Assembly (NCBI RefSeq): GCF_024700885.2
Contig: NZ_CP117016.1
DNA from: Escherichia coli
GTDB taxonomy: Bacteria; Pseudomonadota; Gammaproteobacteria; Enterobacterales; Enterobacteriaceae
Strand: one strand, 5' to 3'
Length of the DNA: 64,000 nt
This document shows, one piece after another, positions 1,758-53,886 of the stretch (positions are counted from its first letter, which is position 1; each line of letters opens with the position of its first letter). Position numbers and translations under genes: made by a program. The notes beneath the pieces are model-generated. The model was not told where the DNA came from and ran no database searches. It saw nothing but the letters and a program-made list of their open reading frames with translations.

Positions 1758-2577
1758 GGCACTGTTGCAAATAGTCGGTGGTGATAAACTTATCATCCCC
1801 TTTTGCTGATGGAGCTGCACATGAACCCATTCAAAGGCCGGCATTTTCAGCGTGACATCATTCTGTGGGCCGTACGCTGGTACTGCAAATACGGCATCAG
1901 TTACCGTGAGCTGCAGGAGATGCTGGCTGAACGCGGAGTGAATGTCGATCACTCCACGATTTACCGCTGGGTTCAGCGTTATGCGCCTGAAATGGAAAAA
2001 CGGCTGCGCTGGTACTGGCGTAACCCTTCCGATCTTTGCCCGTGGCACATGGATGAAACCTACGTGAAGGTCAATGGCCGCTGGGCGTATCTGTACCGGG
2101 CCGTCGACAGCCGGGGCCGCACTGTCGATTTTTATCTCTCCTCCCGTCGTAACAGCAAAGCTGCATACCGGTTTCTGGGTAAAATCCTCAACAACGTGAA
2201 GAAGTGGCAGATCCCGCGATTCATCAACACGGATAAAGCGCCCGCCTATGGTCGCGCGCTTGCTCTGCTCAAACGCGAAGGCCGGTGCCCGTCTGACGTT
2301 GAACACCGACAGATTAAGTACCGGAACAACGTGATTGAATGCGATCATGGCAAACTGAAACGGATAATCGGCGCCACGCTGGGATTTAAATCCATGAAGA
2401 CGGCTTACGCCACCATCAAAGGTATTGAGGTGATGCGTGCACTACGCAAAGGCCAGGCCTCAGCATTTTATTATGGTGATCCCCTGGGCGAAATGCGCCT
2501 GGTAAGCAGAGTTTTTGAAATGTAAGGCCTTTGAATAAGACAAAAGGCTGCCTCATCGCTAACTTTGCAACAGTGCC
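1758..2577 (+). mobile_element. IS26 (IS6 family) insertion sequence, complete 820 bp
   Basis: 14-bp terminal inverted repeats GGCACTGTTGCAAA at 1758-1771 and its complement at 2564-2577; encodes Tnp26. Confidence 0.95.
1821..2525 (+). CDS. tnpA: IS26 transposase Tnp26
   Basis: 234-aa protein starting MNPFKGRHFQRDIILWAVRWYCKYGISYRELQEM, recognised as IS26 transposase. Confidence 0.95.
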   Translation: MNPFKGRHFQRDIILWAVRWYCKYGISYRELQEMLAERGVNVDHSTIYRWVQRYAPEMEKRLRWYWRNPSDLCPWHMDETYVKVNGRWAYLYRAVDSRGRTVDFYLSSRRNSKAAYRFLGKILNNVKKWQIPRFINTDKAPAYGRALALLKREGRCPSDVEHRQIKYRNNVIECDHGKLKRIIGATLGFKSMKTAYATIKGIEVMRALRKGQASAFYYGDPLGEMRLVSRVFEM

Positions 2578-2585
2578 ACTTTACG
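2578..2585. repeat. IS26 target-site duplication, right copy (ACTTTACG)
   Basis: Identical to 1750-1757. Confidence 0.9.
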
Positions 2586-3749
2586 CACGGTTGTCAGGTC
2601 ACGTCCCATCTGTAAATCGACATTGCCGACGCAGGTGCAGACCTCTTTTTTGGTGCCCGCATGTCTTTCGGTGGCATAACCCACACACAGTCCGGCCAGG
2701 ACGGTATCGAAATATTTTTCTTCTGCATTCGCGGGTAAGTAGTCGGGATGAGCGACTAGATGGCGGAGGTAATGATAAAAAGCGTCCAGCTGTGCGGGTT
2801 GCTGAGCAAAATTCACATTGACTAACTCTTTCGCACTTTCACCAACCACCATTGCCGAGACGCGCATTCCCAGATCGCCTTCCACCGTCCGTTTCACGAA
2901 GGGTTCCGGTACGCCGTGTAAAACGGTGTCGGGCGAGAGCGTGTTGGCACAGGCGGAATAGACATCGGTGGTTGCGCCACCCATGTCGATCAGCATGAAC
3001 TCTTTCCAGCTGTGATCGACGTTACTGATTGCCTTAACCAGTTCAAAGACCGTCCATGGTGTCGGCATTGGTTCTTCGCCTGTTTTATCAACAATGACAT
3101 CCAACCCTTTCCCTTTAACGATGCGTTTAAGGAATATGTCGCAGATAGCCTGGCGTGCAGCTAAAGGGTTCGGATGGTCAAGATCGGGCAGAACGTTGTC
3201 GACGATGGTCAGGTCTTTATGCCCGAGGATCTCCTGCACCTCGTCCTGAATATCCCGGTTTCCGGCATAAATAATGGCGCAGTCGAGTTTGGATTCTGCC
3301 AACACACGGGCGTTATTCAGTCCGTAGCTTTCTTCTCCGCCATCGGTGCCGCCGGTGAACAAGAGAATATCGGGCTGCGTTTCTTCCAGTGCCTGGATAT
3401 CACGGCGGTTCAGCTTGTAGGCGTAATATTGCGCAATTTTAGCACCCGCAGAGTGAGCGGTTACTTTCGCGGTTTCCAGGGTGATAGAAGGCACCAATCC
3501 CATTGCGGCAACCGCCAGCCCACCTTTGGCAGAGGAGGAATACTTCAATGCAACCTCACCACTGTTTAACAGGGGGAGGGCATTATCTACGTTTAACACC
3601 TGGTCCAGGCTGGAGAAAAACCCCTTCGCCAGATGATGGGTGGTGGTTGGGGTCAGAACGTGGTTAACCAACGTTAACGCGTCCCCCTCCCGGGTGAAGA
3701 GGGCTGCTTTGGTCCACGTCGAACCAATATCGACAGAGACGATTTGCAT
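2578..3749 (-). pseudogene. glmL: glutamate mutase component L, N-terminal part truncated by IS26
   Basis: ORF 2559-3749 (396 aa) reads 19 nt into IS26 before stopping; start overlaps glmS stop. Confidence 0.65.
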
Positions 3750-4198
3750 CAGATTGCCTCTTCAAGAATGCGAGTATCAACGTCATGACGTTGGTTGATA
3801 TCGTGGGCCATCAGCTGACAAACATCTTCTAAGTCATGACTTGGGGAAAAGACGCGATCAAATCCCATCTCTTTGAACTTGGTTTCCACGTCAGCGAAGT
3901 CATGTTTTCCGACCACCAGGTTACCGCCCACATAGAGCAGGATGTTACCCAGCCCACGCTCGATGCAGCGTTCGCGCATGCCCAGACAATCGATATCGCC
4001 ATGCCCATAGATAGAGGAGACGACAATCGCGTCAGCACCAGTTTCAATGGCAGCATCAATATATTCGTCCTGGCTGACCATTACGCCCAGATTAATAACT
4101 CTGAAGTCATGGTTGCTAAAAACGCGGTCCAGAACTTTATTGCCTACTGCATGGCAGTCCGCGCCAATAACGCCAATCACAAGTGTTGCTTTCTTCAT
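3749..4198 (-). CDS. glmS: glutamate mutase S/sigma subunit, B12-binding
   Basis: Start at [19 protein letters not shown] with an AAGGAT ribosome-binding site upstream; cobalamin-binding-type N-terminus. Confidence 0.8.
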
Positions 4199-16094: not shown

Positions 16095-16170
16095 GGGTCG
16101 TTAGCTCAGTTGGTAGAGCAGTTGACTTTTAATCAATTGGTCGCAGGTTCGAATCCTGCACGACCCACCA
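16095..16170 (+). tRNA. lysT: tRNA-Lys (anticodon UUU)
   Basis: 76-nt cloverleaf GGGTCGTTAGCTCAGTTGGTAGAGC...ACGACCCACCA with CTTTTAA anticodon loop. Confidence 0.95.
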
Positions 16171-16198
16171 ATCGCTAAGGTGGACGCGGTAGTAAAAC

Positions 16199-16270
16199 GT
16201 GAAGGATAACGTTGCGTCAGCAACGGCCCGAAGGGCGAGACGAAGTCGAGTCATCCTGCACGACCCACCA
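16199..16270 (+). repeat. spacer repeat ending in a copy of the tRNA-Lys 3' terminus
   Basis: About 70 bp GTGAAGGATAACGTTGCGTCAGCAACGGCCCG...TCATCCTGCACGACCCACCA; second copy at 16694-16763. Confidence 0.7.
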
Positions 16271-16305
16271 CTAACCTAGTTAGTTGTAGTATCCAGCGTA
16301 GTATC

Positions 16306-16381
16306 GGGTGATTAGCTCAGCTGGGAGAGCACCTCCCTTACAAGGAGGGGGTCGGCGGTTCGATCCCGTCATCACCCACCA
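16306..16381 (+). tRNA. valT: tRNA-Val (anticodon UAC)
   Basis: 76-nt cloverleaf GGGTGATTAGCTCAGCTGGGAGAGC...CATCACCCACCA. Confidence 0.95.
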
Positions 16382-16383
16382 CC

Positions 16384-16459
16384 GGGTCGTTAGCTCAGTT
16401 GGTAGAGCAGTTGACTTTTAATCAATTGGTCGCAGGTTCGAATCCTGCACGACCCACCA
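16384..16459 (+). tRNA. lysW: tRNA-Lys (anticodon UUU)
   Basis: Identical to lysT. Confidence 0.95.
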
Positions 16460-16510
16460 CTAATTACGGTGGGTTCGGTGGAAGTAGTTTGTAGTATCCA
16501 GCGCAGTATC

Positions 16511-16586
16511 GGGTGATTAGCTCAGCTGGGAGAGCACCTCCCTTACAAGGAGGGGGTCGGCGGTTCGATCCCGTCATCACCCACCA
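16511..16586 (+). tRNA. valZ: tRNA-Val (anticodon UAC)
   Basis: Identical to valT. Confidence 0.95.
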
Positions 16587-16589
16587 CTC

Positions 16590-16665
16590 GGGTCGTTAGC
16601 TCAGTTGGTAGAGCAGTTGACTTTTAATCAATTGGTCGCAGGTTCGAATCCTGCACGACCCACCA
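16590..16665 (+). tRNA. lysY: tRNA-Lys (anticodon UUU)
   Basis: Identical to lysT. Confidence 0.95.
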
Positions 16666-16693
16666 ATTTTAACATCAAACTCAGATGTTAAGC

Positions 16694-16763
16694 GTGAAGG
16701 ATAACGTTGCGTCAGCAACGGCCCGTAGGGCGAGCGAAGCGAGTCATCCTGCACGACCCACCA
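16694..16763 (+). repeat. spacer repeat ending in a copy of the tRNA-Lys 3' terminus (second copy)
   Basis: Near-identical to 16199-16270. Confidence 0.7.
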
Positions 16764-16811
16764 ATTTTAAAGATTGGTTCCGAGTAGAAATCTTTCAGGT
16801 AACACCCGTAT

Positions 16812-16887
16812 GGGTCGTTAGCTCAGTTGGTAGAGCAGTTGACTTTTAATCAATTGGTCGCAGGTTCGAATCCTGCACGACCCACCA
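16812..16887 (+). tRNA. lysZ: tRNA-Lys (anticodon UUU)
   Basis: Identical to lysT. Confidence 0.95.
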
Positions 16888-16920
16888 TCCTGAATGATTA
16901 AAGCAGCATAATCCCGCAAG

Positions 16921-16996
16921 GGGTCGTTAGCTCAGTTGGTAGAGCAGTTGACTTTTAATCAATTGGTCGCAGGTTCGAATCCTGCACGACCCACCA
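16921..16996 (+). tRNA. lysQ: tRNA-Lys (anticodon UUU)
   Basis: Identical to lysT. Confidence 0.95.
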
Positions 16997-42448: not shown

Positions 42449-43519
42449 TTATTTGATTTCAATTTTGTCCCACTCCCTGCCTCTGTCATCACGATACTGT
42501 GATGCCATGGTGTCCGACTTATGCCCGAGAAGATGTTGAGCAAACTTATCGCTTATCTGCTTCTCATAGAGTCTTGCAGACAAACTGCGCAACTCGTGAA
42601 AGGTTGGCGGATCCCCTTCGAAGGAAAGACCTGATGCTTTTCGTGCGCGCATAAAATACCTTGATACTGTGCCGGATGAAAGCGGTTCACGACGAGTAGA
42701 TGCAATTATGGTTTCTCCGCCAAGAATCTCTTTGCATTTACCAAGTGTTTCCTTCATTGATATCCCGAGAGCATCAACATGCAATGTTGTAGGGATGGCA
42801 ATTTTTACGCCTGTTTTGCTTTGCTCGACATAAAGATATCCATCTACGATATCAGACCACTTCATTTCGCATAAATCACCAACTCGCTGCCCGGTAACAA
42901 CAGCCAGTTCCATTGCAAGTCTGAGCCAACATGGTGATGATTCTGCTGCTTGATAAATTTTCAGGTATTCGTCAGCCGTAAGTCTTGATCTCCTTACCTC
43001 TGATTTTGCTGCGCGAGTGGCAGCGACCGGGTTTGTTGTTATATGGCCTTCAGCTATTGCCTCTCGGAATGCATCGCTCAGTGTTGATCTGATTAACTTG
43101 GCTGACGCCGCCTTGCCCTCGTCTATGTATCCATTGAGCATTGCCGCAATTTCTTTTGTGGTGATGTCTTCAAGTGAAACATCAGGCAGACCCCTCCTTA
43201 TTGCTTTAATTTTGCTCATGTAATTTATGAGTGTCTTCTGCTTGATTCCTCTGCTGGCGAGGATTTTTTCGTAGCGATCAAGCCATGAATGTAACGTAAC
43301 AGAATTATCACTGTTGATTCTCGCTGTCAGAGGCTTGTGTTTGTGTCCTGAAAATAACTCAATATTGGCCTGTATTGCTTCAGTAATTGCTATCCTCCTG
43401 TCTCTGCCTAATCCGAACTCTTTACCCGTCCTTGGGTCCCTGTAGCAGTAATATCCATTGTTTCTTATATAAAGGTTAGGGGGTAAATCCCGGCGCTCAT
43501 GACTTCGCCTTCTTCCCAT
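42449..43519 (-). CDS. int: lambda-type integrase (tyrosine recombinase)
   Basis: 356-aa protein MGRRRSHERRDLPPNLYIRNNGYYCYRDPRTGKEFGLG, recognised as lambda Int. Confidence 0.95.
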   Translation of the reverse strand: MGRRRSHERRDLPPNLYIRNNGYYCYRDPRTGKEFGLGRDRRIAITEAIQANIELFSGHKHKPLTARINSDNSVTLHSWLDRYEKILASRGIKQKTLINYMSKIKAIRRGLPDVSLEDITTKEIAAMLNGYIDEGKAASAKLIRSTLSDAFREAIAEGHITTNPVAATRAAKSEVRRSRLTADEYLKIYQAAESSPCWLRLAMELAVVTGQRVGDLCEMKWSDIVDGYLYVEQSKTGVKIAIPTTLHVDALGISMKETLGKCKEILGGETIIASTRREPLSSGTVSRYFMRARKASGLSFEGDPPTFHELRSLSARLYEKQISDKFAQHLLGHKSDTMASQYRDDRGREWDKIEIK

Positions 43520-43715
43520 TTCTGATCCTCTTCAAAAGGCTACCTGTTACTGGTCGATTTAAGTCAACCTTTACCGCTGATTCGTGGAACAGATACTCTC
43601 TTCCATCCTTAACCGGAGGAGGGAATATCCTGCATTCGCGCACCCATCGACGAACTGTTTCAAGGCTTCTTGGGCGTCGCTGGCGTGCGTTCCACTCCTG
43701 AAGTGTCAAGTACAT
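43497..43715 (-). CDS. xis: lambda-type excisionase
   Basis: 72-aa protein MYLTLQEWNARQRRPRSLETVRRWVRECRIFPPP, recognised as lambda Xis; overlaps int. Confidence 0.9.
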   Translation of the reverse strand: MYLTLQEWNARQRRPRSLETVRRWVRECRIFPPPVKDGREYLFHESAVKVDLNRPVTGSLLKRIRNGKKAKS

Positions 43716-43754
43716 CGCAAAGTCTCCGCAATTACACGCAAGAAAAAGCCGCCA

Positions 43755-43922
43755 TCAGGCGGATTGGTGTTCTTTCAGTTCTTCAATTCGAATATTGGTT
43801 ACGTCTGCATGCGCTATCTGCGCCCATATCATCCAGTGGTTATAGCAGTCGTTGATGTCCTCTGCTTCGATAACCCTGTCGAATGGCTCTCCATTCCATT
43901 CACCTGTGACTCGGAAGTGCAT
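43755..43922 (-). CDS. small hypothetical protein (55 aa), xis-proximal
   Basis: ORF with GGAG ribosome-binding site; MHFRVTGEWNGEPFDRVIEAEDINDCYNHWMIWAQIAHADVTNIRIEELKEHQSA. Confidence 0.4.
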   Translation of the reverse strand: MHFRVTGEWNGEPFDRVIEAEDINDCYNHWMIWAQIAHADVTNIRIEELKEHQSA

Positions 43923-44040
43923 TTATCATCTCCATAAAACAAAACTCGCCGTAGCGAGTTCAGATAAAAGAAATCCCCGCGAGTTCGAGGATTGTTATTC
44001 ATTGCCGATATTCACCTTTATCGCGAACACCTTTACCGGT

Positions 44041-44283
44041 TTATCTCCTTTGCATAGCACGTAATTTTTTCAGATGGTTCTCCTGTTCTGTTTCAGCCAG
44101 GATCTGGTGATATTCTCTGTGATCAATGTGTTCGAATAAATTATTGAATTTTCTGATGCACACTCTTCCAGGATAGCCATCCATCCTCTTGAAGAATACT
44201 GAGTGATCAGTACTACGAATGATTTTTACTGGATAGCCAGCGCTATCGGTGTATATCTGACCACGTTGAATCAGAGAGAACAT
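44041..44283 (-). CDS. hypothetical phage protein (80 aa)
   Basis: ORF in early-left operon orientation. Confidence 0.45.
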   Translation of the reverse strand: MFSLIQRGQIYTDSAGYPVKIIRSTDHSVFFKRMDGYPGRVCIRKFNNLFEHIDHREYHQILAETEQENHLKKLRAMQRR

Positions 44284-44349
44284 TCGTTTATCCCCAGATA
44301 AAAATATAGCAATACCAATTACATAAAATACTTCAGGCCAAGCATCATT

Positions 44350-45006
44350 TCACCCCTGGGGCGGTTCTGGTAGCGGCATCCAGTGGGTTACCTCCATGCG
44401 GCACCCATCATCCGACGTAAACCACGAACGATCGTCCGCACTGAACCAGCCAATCCGGATATAACCCCACACATCGAAGAAAAGTACGTCGTGATTATTA
44501 TCCGGCATTCGATCACTACAGCTTATCCAACCATCAGGAGTTACCGGAGAGTTGCCACCGGGAATATTTTCCGGAATATTTTGTTGTGCGTTTTGTGGTT
44601 GTTCGGATTTACCCTGAAGCATGGCGGCGCGGCAGGCGTTCCAGCCAGCTGTTCGCCCAAGCGCGTAAACTTCAGATGGCTCAAGATAATCAATGTCATG
44701 CCCATCCTCATCGTCGTTCTCAGGTAATGCAGCAGGTACTACCGGTACTGGCGGAGCGGCGTAGACTTCAATAATCCCATTATCAATAGGCCATTCCCCA
44801 TCCTTGATGTAGTCACTTGTGCCGTCAACTTGCTGTTCTGCAATGTGGAATGCGCCAATAGGCTCTGCTTCCAGCGATGCCAGTGCAATACGCAGGGCAG
44901 CCAGGATATTCCCCTGGTAATCATCAAGCCCGAAAGGAAGCTCATCACGAATGCTTTCATAATCGTTGATAGCCTGCTGCAGCCATTCTCTTGTGATAGT
45001 GCTCAT
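44350..45006 (-). CDS. DUF551-like phage protein
   Basis: 218 aa; C-terminal WFSADDRSWFTSDDGCRMEVTHWMPLPEPP resembles the DUF551 family common in lambdoid early regions. Confidence 0.5.
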   Translation of the reverse strand: MSTITREWLQQAINDYESIRDELPFGLDDYQGNILAALRIALASLEAEPIGAFHIAEQQVDGTSDYIKDGEWPIDNGIIEVYAAPPVPVVPAALPENDDEDGHDIDYLEPSEVYALGRTAGWNACRAAMLQGKSEQPQNAQQNIPENIPGGNSPVTPDGWISCSDRMPDNNHDVLFFDVWGYIRIGWFSADDRSWFTSDDGCRMEVTHWMPLPEPPQG

Positions 45007-45671
45007 GATGCCTCTCCTTTACATGCTTCGGTGACGTTTATTCCAGCGTTGTGCAGTGCCTCAAGAACCTGATGCTGCCTGTAAACCATTTCAGTGTGGT
45101 AAGGCTCGTCAAAATCGACGCGATGCAACATGCTATAGCATTGCGGAAGCACAACCTCCCGCAACTCCAGCTCAGCAATGCGCTTCTCTGCGGCTTCCAG
45201 CTTCTCGCGCATATCGTCAACGTACTCGACCAGAGATCCGCCAGCAGGAATTTCGCACTCCTCGACCAGTTGGAAGTAGATATCAGCTGCGGCCCGTGTG
45301 TTGCTATGCCTAGCGTCGCCCATCTCACCTTCACGAAGAGCACCGCGTTCGGCGGTAAGATTGGCTATTTTGCTGTCTTTGCCTTCAAGCTCAACGCGCA
45401 GCTTCCCTACCGTTAGCGCAATATCCTCGTTCTCCTGGTCACGGCGTTTGATGTATTGCTGGTTTCTTTCCCGTTCATCCAGTAGTGCCAGCACGGTTTC
45501 TGGTCCGGCCAGAAATTTGAAGGCGTTGAGCGCATCAATATCCACACCGTAATCTTTAAGTTCCTGTTCACTTAACAAATCATCATCAGCTGGCAACATT
45601 AACAGGCGTTCCATTGCTGGAATTGCACGTTTCGCCGCCTCACGCAGTGCCTGATAGTCAATCTTGCTCAC
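45003..45671 (-). CDS. coiled-coil phage protein, paralog A
   Basis: 222 aa; shares N-terminal IDYQALREAA motif with next gene; start overlaps upstream stop. Confidence 0.5.
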   Translation of the reverse strand: MSKIDYQALREAAKRAIPAMERLLMLPADDDLLSEQELKDYGVDIDALNAFKFLAGPETVLALLDERERNQQYIKRRDQENEDIALTVGKLRVELEGKDSKIANLTAERGALREGEMGDARHSNTRAAADIYFQLVEECEIPAGGSLVEYVDDMREKLEAAEKRIAELELREVVLPQCYSMLHRVDFDEPYHTEMVYRQHQVLEALHNAGINVTEACKGEAS

Positions 45672-46264
45672 TGGTTGCCTCCTTTTCGAAGCTGGGCGGC
45701 GATATCTTCGAGAACGCCATCAGAGAATGAGCGGTCAAAATCGCCTTCCGGCGCATTAGCCATAAACTCAGTAGAGGTAAGAATCATCCGGGCAATATCC
45801 GCGGCGTTCTTCGCAGTATCATCAATAAAACCAGCTTCCCAGGCAGCCAGCATTCTGTTCGCCACAAAATAAGCGCCTTCCTTGCGTGCTTCAGTCTTCA
45901 CTTCAGCTAGAAAAGCATCGGTAGCTGGAGTTTCGCTGTGGTGCAGGGCATCGTTGATAATCATTGCAGCAACTCCGGCCTGCCCTGCATCCGTGACCGA
46001 CACATGCTCAAGAGTTACGGCCATTGCGTGTTTCAGCCCGGCGTTCTCTGCCACCAGCGCCGCGAGATTAGTCTCAAGCTCTGCAATACGGCACATAGCA
46101 TCAATATTTGTGTCTTCCAGCCGCTTAATTTCATCCAGTAGAGCCAGTGCCACCGATGGCGTGAACGCCATACGAAACGCCACAAAATTTTGATGCATAG
46201 GTTCTGTTTCTACTGCAACTGCCGCATCTCGCAGTGCCTGATAGTCAATTGTCATTCTCGCCAT
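45668..46264 (-). CDS. coiled-coil phage protein, paralog B
   Basis: 198 aa; N-terminal [14 protein letters not shown]. Confidence 0.5.
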   Translation of the reverse strand: MARMTIDYQALRDAAVAVETEPMHQNFVAFRMAFTPSVALALLDEIKRLEDTNIDAMCRIAELETNLAALVAENAGLKHAMAVTLEHVSVTDAGQAGVAAMIINDALHHSETPATDAFLAEVKTEARKEGAYFVANRMLAAWEAGFIDDTAKNAADIARMILTSTEFMANAPEGDFDRSFSDGVLEDIAAQLRKGGNQ

Positions 46265-46917
46265 CCTTCACAGTTGTAATCACGACAGCCTTCAAAATCA
46301 TATGGGCTGTACTGCCAGGTAATTTTTCCGCAATGCGGACAATTCCAACGCACCTTCCCGCTTCGCGACTTCTTTCTTCTGTTCTGCTTTTTCAACCAGT
46401 CAGGCATGACCAAACCTGCGCCCTGAACCATTGTTCTGCGGTTAAAGTTATTGATATTGAACGTCCGGCGCTTTGCTGAATCAGCAATGGAAAATGGCAA
46501 CCAAACTATTCCTGGTTCGTTTTTGTTGGCGACGCTAAAGATGGTCGCTTTACTGAAGTCATCTGTTGGCAATCCACCGTGTTGAAGCCAGTAAACATCG
46601 TTGCCGTTCCAGCTACCTTTTTTGTAGGCCACATACGCAGTGCAATCTGACTCAATCAGGCTTTCTGTAGGGATGTACTGGCAATCAACGTGCCACACTG
46701 CCATTGCATCCACGCTATCCGCGCAAACAGGCTGATCGATATCTCGCCCACAATTCCAGGCTTTTTGGGCTTCTTCCAGCGTGTAAACATGAGCGCGATC
46801 GATATCAGAACTGTAACCATTGCCGTTATGGCAATGGAATGAAGCGTTATTGCCCACAGTTTCACGCGAGCACATCATGTAAAAACGGTTAGTCACTGGC
46901 TGCCTCCTTTGCGCCAC
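46252..46917 (-). CDS. hypothetical phage protein with C-terminal Cys-rich zinc-ribbon-like motif
   Basis: 221-aa ORF (GTG start; ATG alternatives at 46878/46875); CPHCG...C...C at C-terminus. Confidence 0.5.
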
Positions 46918-47076
46918 ATCGCATTCAGATATTTGTTTTCATTCACTGATGGAAAAGAATTTCTCTTAAGTAATTCCTCTCTCGATGGCATTGGCTTTAC
47001 GCGTTGGCGAATAATCATTTCTGCCGGAAGAATGCCGGGATTGTATGCAAGTCCTCTCATGGTAAATTACTCTTTG

Positions 47077-47391
47077 TTAATTTATTTGTATGCCTGCTCT
47101 TTCTTCATCGAGTTTTTTTAGCTTGTATCGCATAGCTCTTACTGAATAAATTGAGCGGCAGGTTGCAATTGCTATTTCTTCTGCGGAGAACTTACCGAAA
47201 AGTGATACTTCGGCTCTTGTCCATCGTCTTCCACGAAGTCGGCTAACAATGTCAGCGCCAATCCTTGTTGCTTTCGCCATTACTGCTTTTTCAGTCCTTT
47301 CCAGTTTTTCAGCGATAACTTCAACTGGCATTGTCGCCGCCACTTCGCGCAAGAAATCGACTTCCCATTTCTCCCATGGAGTCTTTTTCAT
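47077..47391 (-). CDS. hypothetical phage protein (104 aa)
   Basis: Basic protein in early-left operon. Confidence 0.45.
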   Translation of the reverse strand: MKKTPWEKWEVDFLREVAATMPVEVIAEKLERTEKAVMAKATRIGADIVSRLRGRRWTRAEVSLFGKFSAEEIAIATCRSIYSVRAMRYKLKKLDEERAGIQIN

Positions 47392-47402
47392 AGGCGATAC
47401 CG

Positions 47403-47891
47403 TTATTTGATAAGAAGTGAAGGTTTCCCAACTTTGAGTTGAGCACCGGGGATATTTATTCCTGCTTTTAGTTGGTGTTTGATTGCCAGTTTGTCGGCTT
47501 TAATTGTCGTTTCAAACTCAACGTATTCAGGAGGAAGGGTGCTTGAGTCGATGATTTCTACAGTTTCTGACGGTTTGCGGATTGTTACCTGGTGAATACC
47601 TGCTCGAATCTTTTTCTTGCCAACCATTTCAAGCGATGACGCTATATACGCCATAATGCTGTCAATCTTATTTTGAATTACTGCGGCTCGCTCATTTAGT
47701 GACTTTGCCTCGTCCTTGAGGCGTTCAGCATAACCAGATTCATTTTTAATAATGGCAAGAAGTTGCTCTATTTTATCGGTAAATTCTCCTTCCATGCCTT
47801 CTATTGTGTCAGCAATCATCTCTGGCTCTAAATCTGAATCCATCAATTTTGCGTATTCATTGGCTATTTCATATAGTTTGCTCACTGGCAA
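47403..47891 (-). CDS. Gp157-like recombination accessory protein
   Basis: 162-aa coiled-coil protein immediately downstream of and overlapping recT; assignment to the Gp157 family is from memory. Confidence 0.45.
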   Translation of the reverse strand: MPVSKLYEIANEYAKLMDSDLEPEMIADTIEGMEGEFTDKIEQLLAIIKNESGYAERLKDEAKSLNERAAVIQNKIDSIMAYIASSLEMVGKKKIRAGIHQVTIRKPSETVEIIDSSTLPPEYVEFETTIKADKLAIKHQLKAGINIPGAQLKVGKPSLLIK

Positions 47892-48771
47892 CCTCCAGTT
47901 TCGCTTTGCATTCTATGTAAATGGCTTGTACGTTCTGCTGCAATTTCATTCCAGATGTCAGGCGATATGCTTCTGCAAAATATCGCTTCAAATCATCCAT
48001 GTTTTCTGCCTGAGCCATTTCATCACAAAGAAGTTGTGCTTTTTCCATAATTTCCTGCTGGCGTTTCCGTTCATCTTCGCGGATATATTCCTCTGATTTG
48101 TGCGGCATAACTGGTTCAGTCCACACACCTTCTTCTTCGTTTAGTACGTGAATAGCACTATCAAGACGTGATGCCTTAGGCCAATACTTGCTTGCACGCT
48201 TTACGACCGTCTTTCGCGCCATCTCTTCCCAGAATGTTTTCCACGGTCCATTCTTTGCCTTGCTCGTTGCTTCCACAGCTTTAATTTCTGCCAGACTCAT
48301 TTCTTCAGTCAGGTAGTCACCATCTGCTGTTTTAACCGTGCAATAACCACCAACAATAGAGCCTCGCTCACCAAATGCGTTGTATTTGTGGGTTGGTGCT
48401 GAATCAAGACCGTTTGATTCATAGGTGTCGTTTGAGTACACCAGTTTGCATTGCCCCCACTTAATTGATCCTGTCGACTGTGCAAGGTGAAGTAATCCCA
48501 TGTAACTGATATCAAGGCACACCATGCCGTCGCGAGGAACCAGATAAGCCAGTTTGCTGGCCGGGTTTAAGGTGATGCCGATCGCCGCAACGTTGATGAT
48601 AGCGTTCTGTGCGCTGGTCGGATTTGCCAGTGCCGTTTTAGCCAGGTAATCATTTTTCTGGAAATACTGAATTGCAAACTGGCTTTCCTTAGCCCATGTC
48701 ACCGTCTGTTCAGTCAATGCTCCGCAGAATAACTGCTCCTGCTGTTTAACGAATTCAACGATATTGCTCAT
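47869..48771 (-). CDS. recT: RecT-family single-strand annealing recombinase
   Basis: 300-aa protein, recognised as RecT-like; occupies the position of lambda bet. Confidence 0.7.
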   Translation of the reverse strand: MSNIVEFVKQQEQLFCGALTEQTVTWAKESQFAIQYFQKNDYLAKTALANPTSAQNAIINVAAIGITLNPASKLAYLVPRDGMVCLDISYMGLLHLAQSTGSIKWGQCKLVYSNDTYESNGLDSAPTHKYNAFGERGSIVGGYCTVKTADGDYLTEEMSLAEIKAVEATSKAKNGPWKTFWEEMARKTVVKRASKYWPKASRLDSAIHVLNEEEGVWTEPVMPHKSEEYIREDERKRQQEIMEKAQLLCDEMAQAENMDDLKRYFAEAYRLTSGMKLQQNVQAIYIECKAKLEVASEQTI

Positions 48772-49079
48772 GCTGCTTCTCCATAAATGTGTCTGCGTTT
48801 GAATATTGCGAAGGCATATTCAGCCTTAACTCTTTCGGTTATTGCATCCCAGAACCATTCAGCGGCTTTTTCCTGATAGTTACAGTCATCATCTTCCAGC
48901 CAGTCGATAGCGTCCTTAGTGTGTTCATCTGGTTTATATGAGCGAAGCATTTCGCTTATTGGGTCGCAACGTTTGCAGAGGCGATCAACTTCACTGTTGA
49001 TTCGTTCGTAATCTTCATCAGTAAAACTTGCGATTATTTGCGATATTTCACGCTTATCATTCAGAGTCAGAATCATCAT
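48768..49079 (-). CDS. hypothetical phage protein (103 aa)
   Basis: ORF overlapping recT start. Confidence 0.45.
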   Translation of the reverse strand: MMILTLNDKREISQIIASFTDEDYERINSEVDRLCKRCDPISEMLRSYKPDEHTKDAIDWLEDDDCNYQEKAAEWFWDAITERVKAEYAFAIFKRRHIYGEAA

Positions 49080-53058: not shown

Positions 53059-53886
53059 ATGGGGTATGTCTCTATACACCGCCAGTTTATGGACAGCAGG
53101 CTCTATAAGGACTCTCAGGCAGTACATCTTTGGCTTCACTTAATCCTCAAGGCTAATCACGAATCTACTGTCGTCAATACGGTTATCGGGCCGATAACTG
53201 TTGATCGCGGTCAGATGATAACTGGACGCCCGTCGCTGGTCAGAGAAACATTCATCCCCGACAACAAAGTTAGGAGCTTATTGCGGACTTTTGAGTCGAA
53301 AGGGATGCTTAATATTTGCTCGATGGGGAAGAAATTTAGCCTGTTTACAATCGTTAAATATGACGATTTTCAGGCAAAAAATTGTCCAACGGTTGTCCAA
53401 CGGTTGTCCAACGCAAACACCAGTAATGGCGCGGCTCTCAGCGGAGATTGTCCAACGGTTGTCCAACGGTTGTCCATAAACAATAATATAAATAATATCT
53501 CTAATACTGACGTATTAGAGAGTACCGCAGCAGACAAAAAGTCTGACAAGAAAAAACCTTCCGTCAGCTGTCAGGATGTTGTCGATGCTTACCACGAAAT
53601 CCTTCCTGAAGCGCCAAGAATCCGCGCACTGAATGACAAGCGTAAAAACCAGATCCGAACGTTCTGGCGCAAAGCCGGAGTGATAACCCGACAGCTTGAC
53701 GGGCATGGGTTCACGATGCAGGACTGGAGAAATTATTTGAGCTACGTAGGCGAAAATTGCCGATGGATGTTCGAAGAACGCCCAAACCATCAACGCGGAA
53801 CCGTCTGGCACAAAAAGGGATTTGATTTCCTGCTTAACGACAATACCTACCTGAAAGTTCGTGAGGGTGAACATGATGACCGATAA
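53059..53886 (+). CDS. replication initiator (O-like) containing the iteron origin
   Basis: Strong AGGAGG ribosome-binding site; iterons embedded in coding sequence; followed by helicase gene. Confidence 0.7.
   Translation: MGYVSIHRQFMDSRLYKDSQAVHLWLHLILKANHESTVVNTVIGPITVDRGQMITGRPSLVRETFIPDNKVRSLLRTFESKGMLNICSMGKKFSLFTIVKYDDFQAKNCPTVVQRLSNANTSNGAALSGDCPTVVQRLSINNNINNISNTDVLESTAADKKSDKKKPSVSCQDVVDAYHEILPEAPRIRALNDKRKNQIRTFWRKAGVITRQLDGHGFTMQDWRNYLSYVGENCRWMFEERPNHQRGTVWHKKGFDFLLNDNTYLKVREGEHDDR
53382..53477. repeat. origin iterons: two clusters of three TTGTCCAACGG repeats
   Basis: Direct 11-bp repeats at 53382-53414 and 53448-53477, followed by AT-rich stretch. Confidence 0.8.

Follow-up and report, generated by a model that had tools for sequence, protein, structure and literature searches.

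Adjacent Ead/Ea22-family genes of an Escherichia coli lambdoid prophage as probable products of cassette exchange at short sequence islands

Two genes that lie end to end on one strand, begin with nearly the same dozen residues and end in unrelated sequence raise the question of whether they are local duplicates that drifted apart or family members brought together from elsewhere. The pair, here called A and B, lies in a 64-kb stretch of the genome of E. coli MLI114 (the window, meaning the whole of the DNA that was analyzed), which carries a lambdoid prophage integrated beside ybhC, in the attachment site of lambda. An earlier note, made from the sequence alone, placed adjacent open reading frames of 222 and 198 aa at 45003-46264 on the minus strand, where both are indeed found, and described them as tandem coiled-coil paralogues in which a conserved N-terminal module is fused to partner-specific C-terminal domains, with lambda's ea genes as a place to look for relatives. 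Our explanation, which taken as a whole we hold to be very probable, is that A and B are Ead/Ea22 members that are products of cassette exchange, are probably co-translated, and may by analogy have a scaffold role. RefSeq names both an "ead/Ea22-like family protein", and the family profile PF13935 (Ead_Ea22; IPR025153) matches B with 104.4 bits over residues 2-169 and A with 41.1 bits over residues 6-122, where the cut-off is 27. The pointer to lambda was a good one; B matches lambda Ea22 with 55% identity over residues 1-102 (E = 8e-28) and A matches it with 34% identity over residues 3-64 (E = 4e-6).

The genomic setting agrees with the family assignment. RefSeq gives the gene order int, xis, ..., DUF551, B, A, ..., Gp157, RecT, kil, N and a cI-like repressor, which is the order found in lambda around ea22, and A and B stand at the lambda ea22 position with recombination genes to one side (the RecT gene is 1.6 kb away) and xis/int to the other. 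This early-left accessory location is typical of the Ead/Ea22 family, and A and B belong to the leftward early operon of the prophage. The gene upstream of A, which accompanies A in P1-like plasmids and P7, was considered as an EaE/Oad2 relative and set aside, as it has no similarity to the EaE of HF4s; the downstream DUF551 gene is 40% identical to HF4s EaA, with the first 51 residues near-identical. A search of NCBIfam with all four genes gave nothing useful. The exact A protein occurs on 801 contigs and the exact B protein on 23, the latter within a 266-member cluster. The 2.7-kb region as a unit is covered to at least 80% in one E. coli genome only and in no phage record, and pieces of it are found in 2,958 genomes. 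The features discussed below are collected in Table 1.

Table 1. Positions of genes, islands, structural regions and junctions at the A/B locus, numbered from the first letter of the window.
Feature	Coordinates	Strand	Description and basis
Upstream gene	46252..46896	-	214 aa, PHROG 2457, Cys-rich C-terminus; ATGA overlap with A
Gene A, Ead/Ea22-like	45668..46255	-	WP_001702241.1, 195 aa; RefSeq, ORF list, Pfam
Gene B, Ead/Ea22-like	45003..45671	-	WP_257843044.1, 222 aa, GTG start; ORF list, RefSeq, Pfam
Downstream DUF551 gene	44350..45006	-	218 aa, EaA-like; PF04448 E = 1.2e-15; ATGA overlap with B
N-cap DNA island of A (IDYQALRDAA)	46221..46249	-	Direct repeat D1, 27/29 nt with B copy
N-cap DNA island of B (IDYQALREAA)	45634..45662	-	Direct repeat D1
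LLDE island of A (..ALALLDE)	46130..46147	-	Opens long helix; direct repeat D3, 17/18 nt
LLDE island of B (..LALLDE)	45474..45491	-	Direct repeat D3, 17/18 nt
Heptad-repeat region of A, residues 34-70	46046..46156	-	Heptad score; helical in low-confidence model
Long helix/coiled-coil region of B, residues 57-115	45327..45503	-	AlphaFold2, heptad test
C-terminal region of A, about residues 86-195	45671..46000	-	Predicted all-helical; PHROG 14548 and 614
C-terminal region of B, residues 116-222	45006..45326	-	Sub-module map, AlphaFold2
A/B junction	45668..45684	-	A codons K-G-G (AAAGGAGG) are the RBS for the B GTG
B/DUF551-gene junction	45003..45019	-	B codons K-G-E (AAGGAGAG) are the RBS for the downstream ATG

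The longest open reading frame of A runs 45668-46264 (198 aa), and the RefSeq start at 46255 (MTIDYQ...) has the better RBS spacing and an ATGA overlap with the upstream gene. The overlapping stop and start that the earlier note saw between A and B is GTGA at 45668-45671, in which the TGA stop of A overlaps the GTG start of B, with AAGGAGG at 45678-45684, six nucleotides upstream of that start; ATGA at 45003-45006 is in turn common to B and the DUF551 gene. Between 46896 and 44350, four genes are linked stop to start by ATGA, GTGA and ATGA, and because of these overlaps their products are probably co-produced by translational coupling. A scan of 43400-48900 found fewer promoter-like sites than in shuffled sequence, and no convincing terminator within the gene chain. 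The same A/B junction (..QLRKGGNQ and stop, then a GTG start) recurs in 13 viral loci. Proteins of the Ea22 family are known to end in a basic-Gly-Glu (+GE) motif (PMC7093339), which is altered or shifted here to K-G-E-A-S in B and K-G-G-N-Q in A, and whose position coincides with the RBS of the next, coupled gene. To judge from the sequence, it is this ribosome-binding function that likely explains the motif.

The shared N-terminus, which we call the N-cap, is the signature helix of the Ead/Ea22 family. The A and B versions, IDYQALRDAA and IDYQALREAA, score 45 with BLOSUM62, the next best score being 24 among the 86,273 six-frame 10-mers of the window, so that the near-identity of the first dozen residues is well above chance. 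The DUF551 gene begins with NDYESIRDEL, which we examined as a further relative and treated as a chance resemblance, its score of 24 being the same as that of an unrelated match elsewhere. At the DNA level the two N-cap copies share 27 of 29 nucleotides, including a 20-nt exact match that belongs to one of five repeat families in the whole 64-kb window (none was found in 20 shuffles); the A island is a recurrent isolated BLASTN match in relatives, and the B copy likewise gives short isolated matches in otherwise dissimilar E. coli genes. A homologue search with full-length A returned almost solely near-identical proteins, and the diversity of the family was instead surveyed by a profile search of representatives, in which the module profile matched 754 clusters (50% identity) at E <= 1e-3. 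Nearly all of the 150 best representatives have the motif at residue 3-4; its codons occur in synonymous variants at nine of ten positions, and I, L, R and the last A are invariant as residues. In the AlphaFold2 model of B, the corresponding helix (residues 6-24) has a pLDDT of 83-93. The synonymous variation, together with the confident helix, indicates that the N-cap is held by selection on the protein.

The conserved module extends beyond a dozen residues, and the description of the two proteins as diverging completely beyond that point does not hold. A second island of 17/18 identical nucleotides encodes ..P-x-x-V/A-L-A-L-L-D-E in both proteins, the heptad-repeat helices that follow align weakly (BLASTP E = 3e-4, approximately 28% identity), PF13935 covers more than 100 residues of each, and only after roughly residue 85 in A and 97 in B are the two unrelated. 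Each protein consists of an N-terminal helix of the form I-(D/N)-Y-Q-A-L-R-(E/D)-A-A and a variable insert, after which the conserved P-x-x-V-L-A-L-L-D-E opens a long heptad-repeat helix that leads into the unrelated C-terminal region. The AlphaFold2 model of B, made from a 51-sequence alignment, has a pLDDT of 74 and contains a helical unit at 6-54, a long helix of 59 residues at 57-115 (pLDDT approximately 86-95 as far as residue 100) and a separate C-terminal part; a run of 34 residues in the B coil, LLDERERNQQYIKRRDQENEDIALTVGKLRVELE, is the same in lambda Ea22. The model of A, built from a single sequence, is poor (pLDDT 52), and the layout of A is consequently drawn from the alignment and the heptad score only. 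By a crude heptad test, residues 34-70 of A and residues 78-106 and 143-175 of B exceed the 99th percentile of shuffles. With the long helix of B, this gives the proposed coiled coils modest support.

What had been said of the pair, namely that a conserved N-terminal module is joined to unrelated C-terminal regions, is true of the family at large. All 150 of the best module-profile matches are PF13935 proteins, 25 of them also with DUF551, a domain that Pfam does not find in A or B themselves, and these 150 matches spread over 72 PHROG families and approximately 52 end classes, as defined by clustering the last 55 residues. Single-linkage clustering of the C-terminal tails was abandoned for this purpose because short common coil segments chain unrelated cassettes, which merged 127 of 142 sequences into one cluster. 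The C-terminal region of A ends ..AAQLRKGGNQ, is divided by a cassette boundary near TDAFLAEV (45899) and is present in variant forms in viral loci. In B, BLASTP against 226 relatives delimits sub-cassettes at residues 97-170, with a mini-coil EKLEAAEKRIAELE at 151-173, and, with AlphaFold2, a small helix/strand unit at the terminus (163-220). Searches for a relative of known structure or function gave little: a PDB sequence search with A and B returned noise only and did not find 8DSX, which a lambda Ea22 query does find, Foldseek with the B model yielded no PDB match at E <= 0.001 (the top matches being generic long-helix proteins), and the A C-terminal region has no match in PDB, NCBIfam or PADLOC. 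PADLOC-DB likewise had no match for A as a whole or for either neighboring gene, and for B a single weak one (PbeC, E = 0.026) over a coiled-coil stretch. The suggestion that the last 50 residues of B form half of the lambda fold was dropped, since BLASTP of the lambda C-terminal domain (CTD) against the B C-terminus gave no alignment.

The breaks in similarity between this locus and its relatives fall repeatedly in the same places (45385, 45491-97, 45634-72, 45700, 45899, 46130 and 46219-50), although the way BLAST delimits its matches would in part produce such breaks at conserved islands. The break at 46130, in the LLDE island of A, is seen in P7 and in locus L005; that at 45491-45497, in the LLDE island of B, in lambda, P7, L005 and Min27. 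The recurrent break at 45383-45385 is the end of the 34-aa block shared with lambda, and that at 45899-45900 lies inside the C-terminal region of A, while at the N-cap four upstream junction types are freely combined with several downstream cassettes. We propose that the variety arises through exchange of ready-made cassettes rather than local duplication and drift, at islands that would comprise the N-cap (29 nt), LLDE (18 nt), the mini-coil AAEKRIAELE and the terminal K-G-E/RBS junction. In this view alleles that are otherwise unrelated retain DNA homology at these short islands only, and it is there that crossovers fall. The crossovers may be promoted by phage single-strand-annealing recombinases, of which RecT is the candidate here; relaxed homologous recombination by phage recombinases is described in a published account (PMC3945230). 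Tandem pairs would form by the same exchange and would collapse again to single chimeric genes. P7 provides a clear case, as its Upf88.3 is the A N-terminus (MARM..LLDE, 45 aa in the P7 annotation) joined to B' after LLDE, with an 18-nt overlap at the junction on CTGGCACTACTGGATGAA, which is common to both tandem genes of the P1-like plasmid. In sequence, Upf88.3 is exactly what a deletion by crossover between the LLDE islands of such a tandem pair would leave. Locus L005 has one chimeric gene between the same flanks. Tandem layouts recur, in that P1-like plasmids carry the pair, abutting pairs are found in 13 of 80 viral loci and a decayed first gene in 11 more, frequencies that are merely indicative because the 80 loci are a best-scoring and redundant set.

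Three other accounts of the shared N-terminus and of the origin of the pair have to be set against cassette exchange. That the N-terminal match arises by chance or from low complexity could be argued from the full-protein BLASTP, which omits the N-terminal match and whose best A/B pair reaches only E = 3e-4, but the idea is already refuted by the motif score, by the 20-nt repeat that shuffles never reproduced and by the hundreds of clusters that carry the same motif, and it has next to no chance of being right. It is also conceivable that the N-terminal identity is kept mainly at the nucleotide level, for translation initiation or coupling or as a recombination 'linker'. The 20 exact nucleotides directly follow coupled start codons, Leu is always encoded by CTG and third positions show fair conservation, crossovers occur inside the N-cap, and the K-G-E motif near the C-terminus of family members seems to be a comparable nucleotide-level signal. 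Yet the residues are kept while nine of ten codons vary synonymously, the motif is retained across four upstream junctions with both ATG and GTG starts, and AlphaFold2 packs it as a confident helix in a small N-terminal domain, and for these reasons we regard a mainly nucleotide-level explanation as unlikely, though it deserves some credence. The remaining account is that one ea22 gene was duplicated in place and that the copies diverged except at the N-terminus because their C-terminal domains changed fast in pursuit of different partners. In its favor, A and B lie side by side on one strand and belong to a single family, whose most variable part is the C-terminal region. Against this, the 29-nt and 18-nt islands are all the DNA similarity that they share, and almost the same sequence as each occurs in other settings: P1-like plasmids and viral contigs carry genes that match A fully or at 98-99% identity, and the C-terminal half of B is 99% identical to a single-copy gene of another prophage. 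First- and second-gene classes, moreover, retain distinct coils and ends across many loci. This evidence argues that the pair was assembled from alleles that had already diverged, and makes duplication in place very improbable, so that of "paralogous" the common family stands and divergence after local duplication does not.

As to function, lambda Ea22 is a homotetramer (PMC10834534), the Ea22 family is characterized by full-length tetramers and a dimeric C-terminal domain, and deletion of ea22 speeds induction and raises burst size, a pro-lysogenic phenotype (PMC7093339). By analogy, A and B may be oligomeric coiled-coil scaffolds, tetrameric in the studied homologues, that display their C-terminal domains to host or phage partners; their net effect would favor lysogeny, and they would act as two scaffolds with different specificities. 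That the C-terminal domains are specific for partners, as had been suggested, is not supported, given that published yeast two-hybrid surveys of Ea22 were negative for partners (PMC10834534). Alternatively, A and B might assemble with each other by way of the shared N-terminal module into a mixed oligomer, a single two-headed machine, for which one could cite the N-cap and LLDE island in both proteins, their co-synthesis through GTGA coupling, the recurrence of a two-slot layout with a fixed junction (a first gene ending ..QLRKGGNQ, the GTGA overlap and a second gene starting with the N-terminal module), and locus L010, whose genes are near-identical up to residue 96, a stretch that takes in the coil. 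Identity between the A and B coils, however, is only about 28%, which speaks for their assembling separately, many phages have one gene only or a decayed first gene, and lambda Ea22 assembles with itself, all of which leave the mixed oligomer quite doubtful. A different role altogether would be that of anti-defense or host-takeover factors, in which the scaffold presents inhibitor domains against immune or recombination proteins, hence the rapid turnover of cassettes. The locus lies within a recombination-linked accessory hotspot, its cassette diversity is extreme, and a comparable region is reported to encode the anti-OLD protein Oad2, which is EaE-related and has relatives fused to EaD/Ea22 proteins in some phages (2026 preprint, 10.64898/2026.07.10.737580). 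No Ea22 protein is known to inhibit a defense system, however, the C-terminal regions of A and B have no sequence link to any known inhibitor, the gene upstream of A is unlike HF4s EaE, and the published phenotype is a shift to lysogeny (PMC7093339), and we give this role a small share of our belief. A combination of these ideas, in which the two-slot arrangement is the functional unit, a co-translated mixed oligomer of A and B with swappable heads directed at defense or recombination proteins and with the islands as both interface and exchange sites, is in our view highly doubtful.

Separate scaffolds of the Ea22 type, varied by cassette exchange, remain the reading that we prefer. As a discovery the pair itself has little weight, as RefSeq already lists both proteins by the family name, the family's architecture is published, and the idea of the earlier note is already in the literature (PMC7093339, PMC10834534), as are the conserved front, the coiled coil and the variable back, the mosaic genes and the occasional presence of two variants per phage. 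What is added here is the set of island breakpoints, the origin of P7 Upf88.3, the recurrent two-slot layout and the coincidence of +GE with the RBS. The likely explanation of the +GE ending, which was published as being of unknown significance, could help those who work on Ea22. The P1-like plasmid pair and P7 Upf88.3 together constitute a clear natural case in which tandem paralogues recombined at an 18-nt island, and the island map delimits exchangeable cassettes and so supplies domain boundaries for constructs and partner screens.

Among the closest comparators is lambda Ea22 itself (NP_040612, 182 aa), which is of the same Pfam family and genome position, and which begins V-S-E-I-N-S-Q-A-L-R-E-A-A from a GTG start with a GTGA overlap with the upstream gene, like B. 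It differs in being present as one copy where the MLI114 prophage has two, in having an insert between N-cap and LLDE that is 23 residues shorter than that of B, in having a coil unlike that of A, and in its CTD (residues 102-182; NMR, PDB 8DSX), to which sequence comparison finds nothing equivalent in A or B, nor Foldseek in the B model. The Stx-phage variants Ea22 V1, V2 and V3 are similarly mosaic, in that they share their N-terminal and coil part but differ in C-terminal domains that are unrelated to one another (PMC10834534, PMC7093339), and they have the +GE motif at the end, but their N-terminal insert is a longer strand-containing domain unlike that of A and B, and V2 contains in the same polypeptide the DUF551 that MLI114 encodes in a separate downstream gene. 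Two Ea22 variants per phage occurred in 8 of 37 genomes in the published Stx-phage work (PMC10834534, PMC7093339), and in the phage collection that we searched there are about 10% more Ea22 places than records. In Min27 about 1 kb and four small genes separate the annotated ea22-like gene from the DUF551 gene, whereas at the A/B locus they abut. EaD of the Salmonella phage P22, from which the "ead" in the family name comes, belongs to the same family and ea region, and its match to B is limited to the coil block (tblastn; 83% identity, B residues 62-96), the N-terminal part and C-terminal region being different. The P1-like plasmid pZ1323CEC0010-3 shares the upstream gene, carries an A that is identical and has a second gene of the B type. 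It is 98.9% identical to the MLI114 region over 1,529 bp, though the C-terminal region of its second gene (250 aa, with a Cys-rich insertion) differs from that of B. P7, in which the A N-terminus is fused to a B-type coil, has one chimeric gene in place of the two in MLI114, and in both P7 and the P1-like plasmids the setting is a P1-type operon rather than the lambdoid pL operon in which A and B are found.

The 2.7 kb around the two ead/Ea22-like genes, A and B, is 100% identical to the chromosome of E. coli MLI114 (NZ_CP117013.1). The RefSeq gene order starts with ybhC, a lambda-type integrase, an excisionase, two small genes, a DUF551 gene and the two genes named "ead/Ea22-like family protein" (B, then A), continues with a hypothetical gene, DUF2737, a hypothetical gene, Gp157, RecT, a hypothetical gene and kil, and passes through several small hypothetical genes to N and a LexA-family repressor, which identifies the host element as a lambdoid prophage, probably one inserted at the lambda attachment site. 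A and B hold the position of ea22 in lambda. Insertion at the lambda attachment site is suggested by the integrase and excisionase genes, which match lambda int/xis in length, arrangement and overlap, and by the adjacency of the prophage to ybhC, although for recombination the prophage has RecT/Gp157 in place of lambda exo/bet. The DUF551 gene downstream of B has a mosaic build of its own: compared with HF4s phage EaA, residues 1-51 are near-identical, the middle differs and the DUF551 end is common to both (40% identity overall). A perfect 11-nt unit, TTGTCCAACGG, is repeated in two arrays in the region expected to hold the replication gene of the prophage; these arrays look like the origin iterons of a lambdoid ori. 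Outside the prophage, a cluster of seven tRNA genes with long exact repeats looks like the E. coli chromosomal lysT-valT cluster, and the chromosomal part of the window also carries the direct repeat AAAGCGGCTGCTGAAAAGGC.

Coordinates of the genes, islands, breakpoints and other features discussed in the text
Feature	Position	Strand	Details
Gene B	45003-45671	minus	222 aa; GTG start, AAGGAGG six nt upstream
Gene A, longest ORF	45668-46264	minus	198 aa; ATG start
Gene A, RefSeq start	45668-46255	minus	195 aa (MTIDYQ...); ATG start
DUF551 gene	44350-45006	minus
Short DNA islands of DUF551 gene	44355-44389, 44498-44557, 44610-44651, 44857-44892		recur in many relatives
Integrase/excisionase region	42449-43715	minus	1071-nt and 219-nt genes
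RecT gene	47869-48771
A/B junction with K-G-G codons of A	45668-45684		AAAGGAGG
B/DUF551-gene junction with K-G-E codons of B	45003-45019		AAGGAGAG
Breakpoint (BLASTN)	45383-45385		end of lambda-type coil block
Breakpoint (BLASTN)	45491-45497		B LLDE island
Breakpoint (BLASTN)	45634-45672		B N-cap, isolated 29-39-nt island
Breakpoint (BLASTN)	45700-45704		end of A/B junction
Breakpoint (BLASTN)	45899-45900		within C-terminal region of A
Breakpoint (BLASTN)	46130-46147		A LLDE island
Breakpoint (BLASTN)	46219-46250		A N-cap
Stretches compared for Upf88.3	L003 (P7) 3380-4066 vs L004 (pZ1323CEC0010-3) 2535-3871
P7 upf89.0	L003 2863-3378		171 aa
60-61-aa N-cap ORFs	L034, L036, L037, L057, L059, L065, L066, L070, L072, L075, L076		about 430-690 nt upstream of main Ea22-like gene
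Arrays of TTGTCCAACGG	53382-53413 and 53448-53476		2.9 and 2.6 copies
tRNA cluster	16095-16996	plus	five tRNA-Lys (UUU), two tRNA-Val (UAC)
Direct repeat AAAGCGGCTGCTGAAAAGGC	12558 and 12636		20 nt, exact; copies 78 nt apart

Both genes belong to a known family and are already annotated: protein A has the same sequence as WP_001702241.1 (801 contigs), and protein B is found in exact form on 23 contigs and falls into a cluster whose 266 proteins are all named ead/Ea22-like. The earlier note had described adjacent genes of 222 and 198 aa with overlapping stop and start codons, and both minus-strand ORFs are found with these lengths and with a GTGA overlap between the stop of A and the start of B. 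We take the real start of A to be 46255, as in RefSeq, because it has a GAAGGA eight nt upstream, overlaps the preceding gene in an ATGA, and places the motif at the residue position found in most relatives. A further ATGA joins the stop of B to the start of the next gene, so that stop-start overlaps link all four genes between 46896 and 44350 without a break.

The shared N-terminus is more than chance. Aligned to each other, IDYQALRDAA and IDYQALREAA score 45 (BLOSUM62), compared with 24 for the runner-up among the 86,273 stop-free 10-mers of the six-frame translation of the window; the DNA of this motif, the N-cap, has 27 of 29 nt in common, including an exact run of 20 nt. The 64-kb window has only five repeat families, one of which includes this 20-mer, and twenty shuffles of the window gave no repeated 20-mer. 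The similarity over the first dozen residues thus stands, but the further claim that the proteins then diverge completely holds for the C-terminal regions only, which are unrelated. Pairwise alignment finds a second island, F..P-x-x-(V/A)-L-A-L-L-D-E (the LLDE island; 17 of 18 nt alike, 45474-45491 in B vs 46130-46147 in A), followed by a heptad-repeat helix (BLASTP E = 3e-4), and both proteins pass the 27-bit cut-off of PF13935 (Ead_Ea22), B with 104.4 bits over residues 2-169 and A with 41.1 bits over residues 6-122. By a crude test, heptad scores exceed the 99th percentile of shuffled windows at residues 34-70 of A and 78-106 and 143-175 of B. The AlphaFold2 model of B (mean pLDDT 74, 51-sequence alignment) places the motif in a helix at 6-24, followed by two short helices, a helix of 59 residues (57-115) and a C-terminal part of lower confidence, and the single-sequence model of A is all-helical and poor (pLDDT 52). 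The N-cap seems to be kept for protein and DNA both, the protein contributing more. Its 26 distinct 30-nt versions show synonymous variants at nine of the ten codons, with Ile, Leu, Arg and the final Ala invariant, and in B the motif is a confidently predicted helix; crossovers, too, fall at the motif.

In BLASTN comparisons with ten relatives, breakpoints recur at the same spots. The 2.7-kb region is covered to at least 80% by only one E. coli genome and by no phage record, and across 110 genes the N-cap joins four different upstream junctions to at least five different downstream inserts. In the clearest case, the P1-like plasmid pZ1323CEC0010-3 carries the same upstream gene, an identical A and, in tandem, a B-type gene (B'), and phage P7, in the same context, has a single gene, Upf88.3, composed of the N-terminus of A (MARM..LLDE, 45 aa in the P7 annotation) and of B' after LLDE. 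The alignment blocks overlap by 18 nt, on CTGGCACTACTGGATGAA, which is common to both plasmid genes. Upf88.3 is exactly the chimera that would be expected from a crossover between the two 18-nt LLDE islands in a tandem Ea22 pair, with a 638-bp deletion, and the matching pair is still present in the related plasmid. A P22-like prophage with the same flanks likewise has a single gene, with the A N-cap, a third insert type, and a coil and C-terminal region 99% identical to those of B. From the recurrent breakpoints and these two chimeras, A and B were thus probably joined as already-diverged alleles, and local duplication with drift would not be their origin. Phage single-strand-annealing recombinases, which tolerate short, diverged homology (PMC3945230), probably promote such exchanges, and the prophage carries a RecT gene. 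Among the accessory genes of P7, upf89.0 has a RefSeq name, "minor tail protein", that looks doubtful, and an E-x-K-type motif (..CLIEAKCSRAD..) gives the impression of a small nuclease.

The tandem layout recurs elsewhere. Among 80 viral loci picked by module similarity (a redundant and biased set), an additional N-cap ORF lies upstream in 25: in 13 it abuts the second gene, in one it is about 930 bp upstream, and in 11 it is a remnant 60-61 aa long. In abutting pairs the first gene always ends in ..QLRKGGNQ and usually has an A-type coil, and the second usually ends in ..AGIRIKGE; in one pair (L010) the first 96 residues are near-identical in both genes. The 60-61-aa ORFs have an N-cap start (MSKIDYQALREAAEQATQDEW...) followed by nonsense-looking sequence, and look like the decayed remains of an Ea22-like gene in the first slot.

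A basic-Gly-Glu tripeptide ("+GE") at the C-terminus of Ea22 proteins has been reported, with its significance stated as unknown (PMC7093339). Judged from sequence, this tripeptide coincides with AAAGGAG, the putative ribosome-binding site from which the translationally coupled gene after it would be read: B has its site in the K-G-G codons of A, and the DUF551 gene in the K-G-E codons of B. In the viral loci, [KR]G[EG] occurs within the last six residues of 78 of the 93 Ea22-like genes, compared with only 7% of 279 other ORFs from these loci; the next ORF of at least 50 codons starts -1 to +7 nt from the stop in 76 of the 78, and in 74 the downstream start is preceded at 3-11 nt (mostly 6) by a GGAG-type core. 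The downstream genes are diverse. The variant endings R-I-N-G-G-E and P-P-Q-E-V-N retain the purine core, and endings without it (..DEKP) have no coupled downstream gene; the association has a Fisher p of 0.02 over 39 distinct junctions, which are not phylogenetically independent. Lambda differs in keeping AAAGGAGAGTGAG without a coupled gene of at least 50 codons, only a five-codon GTG ORF being next, and here the sequence could be a relic, or the residues could matter too.

The survey of homologs bears out a conserved N-terminal module with variable C-terminal ends. A profile of the module and first coil block, searched against 1.84 billion representatives (E <= 1e-3), matches 754 clusters at 50% identity. 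In the 150 best matches the module is nearly always N-terminal, PF13935 is present in all, DUF551 is the only further Pfam domain of note (25 matches), and 72 PHROG families are touched. The insert between N-cap and LLDE falls into nine classes of 23 to 68 residues, and the last 55 residues into about 52 classes, frameshift artefacts among them. The module occurs at 431 places in 392 records of the phage collection. Pieces of an 880-bp segment (A and the N-terminus of B) occur in 2,652 of 5,426 complete E. coli genomes, at up to ten places per genome, and the exact tandem segment in 13.

By analogy with Ea22 of lambda and Stx phages, A and B may each be an oligomeric coiled-coil scaffold that shows its C-terminal region to a partner and biases the phage toward lysogeny; the two would differ in specificity and be co-made through translational coupling. 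No EaE likeness was found for the gene upstream of A in comparison with HF4s EaE, and no defence or anti-defence homology for A, B and neighboring genes against PADLOC-DB. A 2026 preprint describes Oad2, an inhibitor of the OLD defence system from such a region, and mentions Oad2-Ea22 fusions (10.64898/2026.07.10.737580), and for this reason we keep an anti-defence reading of A and B open.

Comparison with lambda places both proteins beside Ea22, whose N-terminus is V-S-E-I-N-S-Q-A-L-R-E-A-A: B is 55% identical over residues 1-102 (E = 8e-28), with an exact 34-residue block, LLDERERNQQYIKRRDQENEDIALTVGKLRVELE, in common, and A is 34% identical over residues 3-64 (E = 4e-6). No counterpart of the lambda C-terminal domain (PDB 8DSX) was detected in A or B by sequence searches or Foldseek. 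Published work (PMC10834534; PMC7093339) describes Ea22 as a coiled coil between a short N-terminal region and a C-terminal domain that varies, tetrameric with a dimeric C-terminal domain, encoded by mosaic genes and pro-lysogenic in phenotype; two-hybrid screens gave no partner, and Stx phages have three unrelated C-terminal variants, of which two occur together in the same phage in 8 of 37 genomes. The proposal of the earlier note, that a conserved module fused to variable ends reflects diversification of a partner-specific domain, is therefore partly supported and already in print, being essentially the published view of Ea22.
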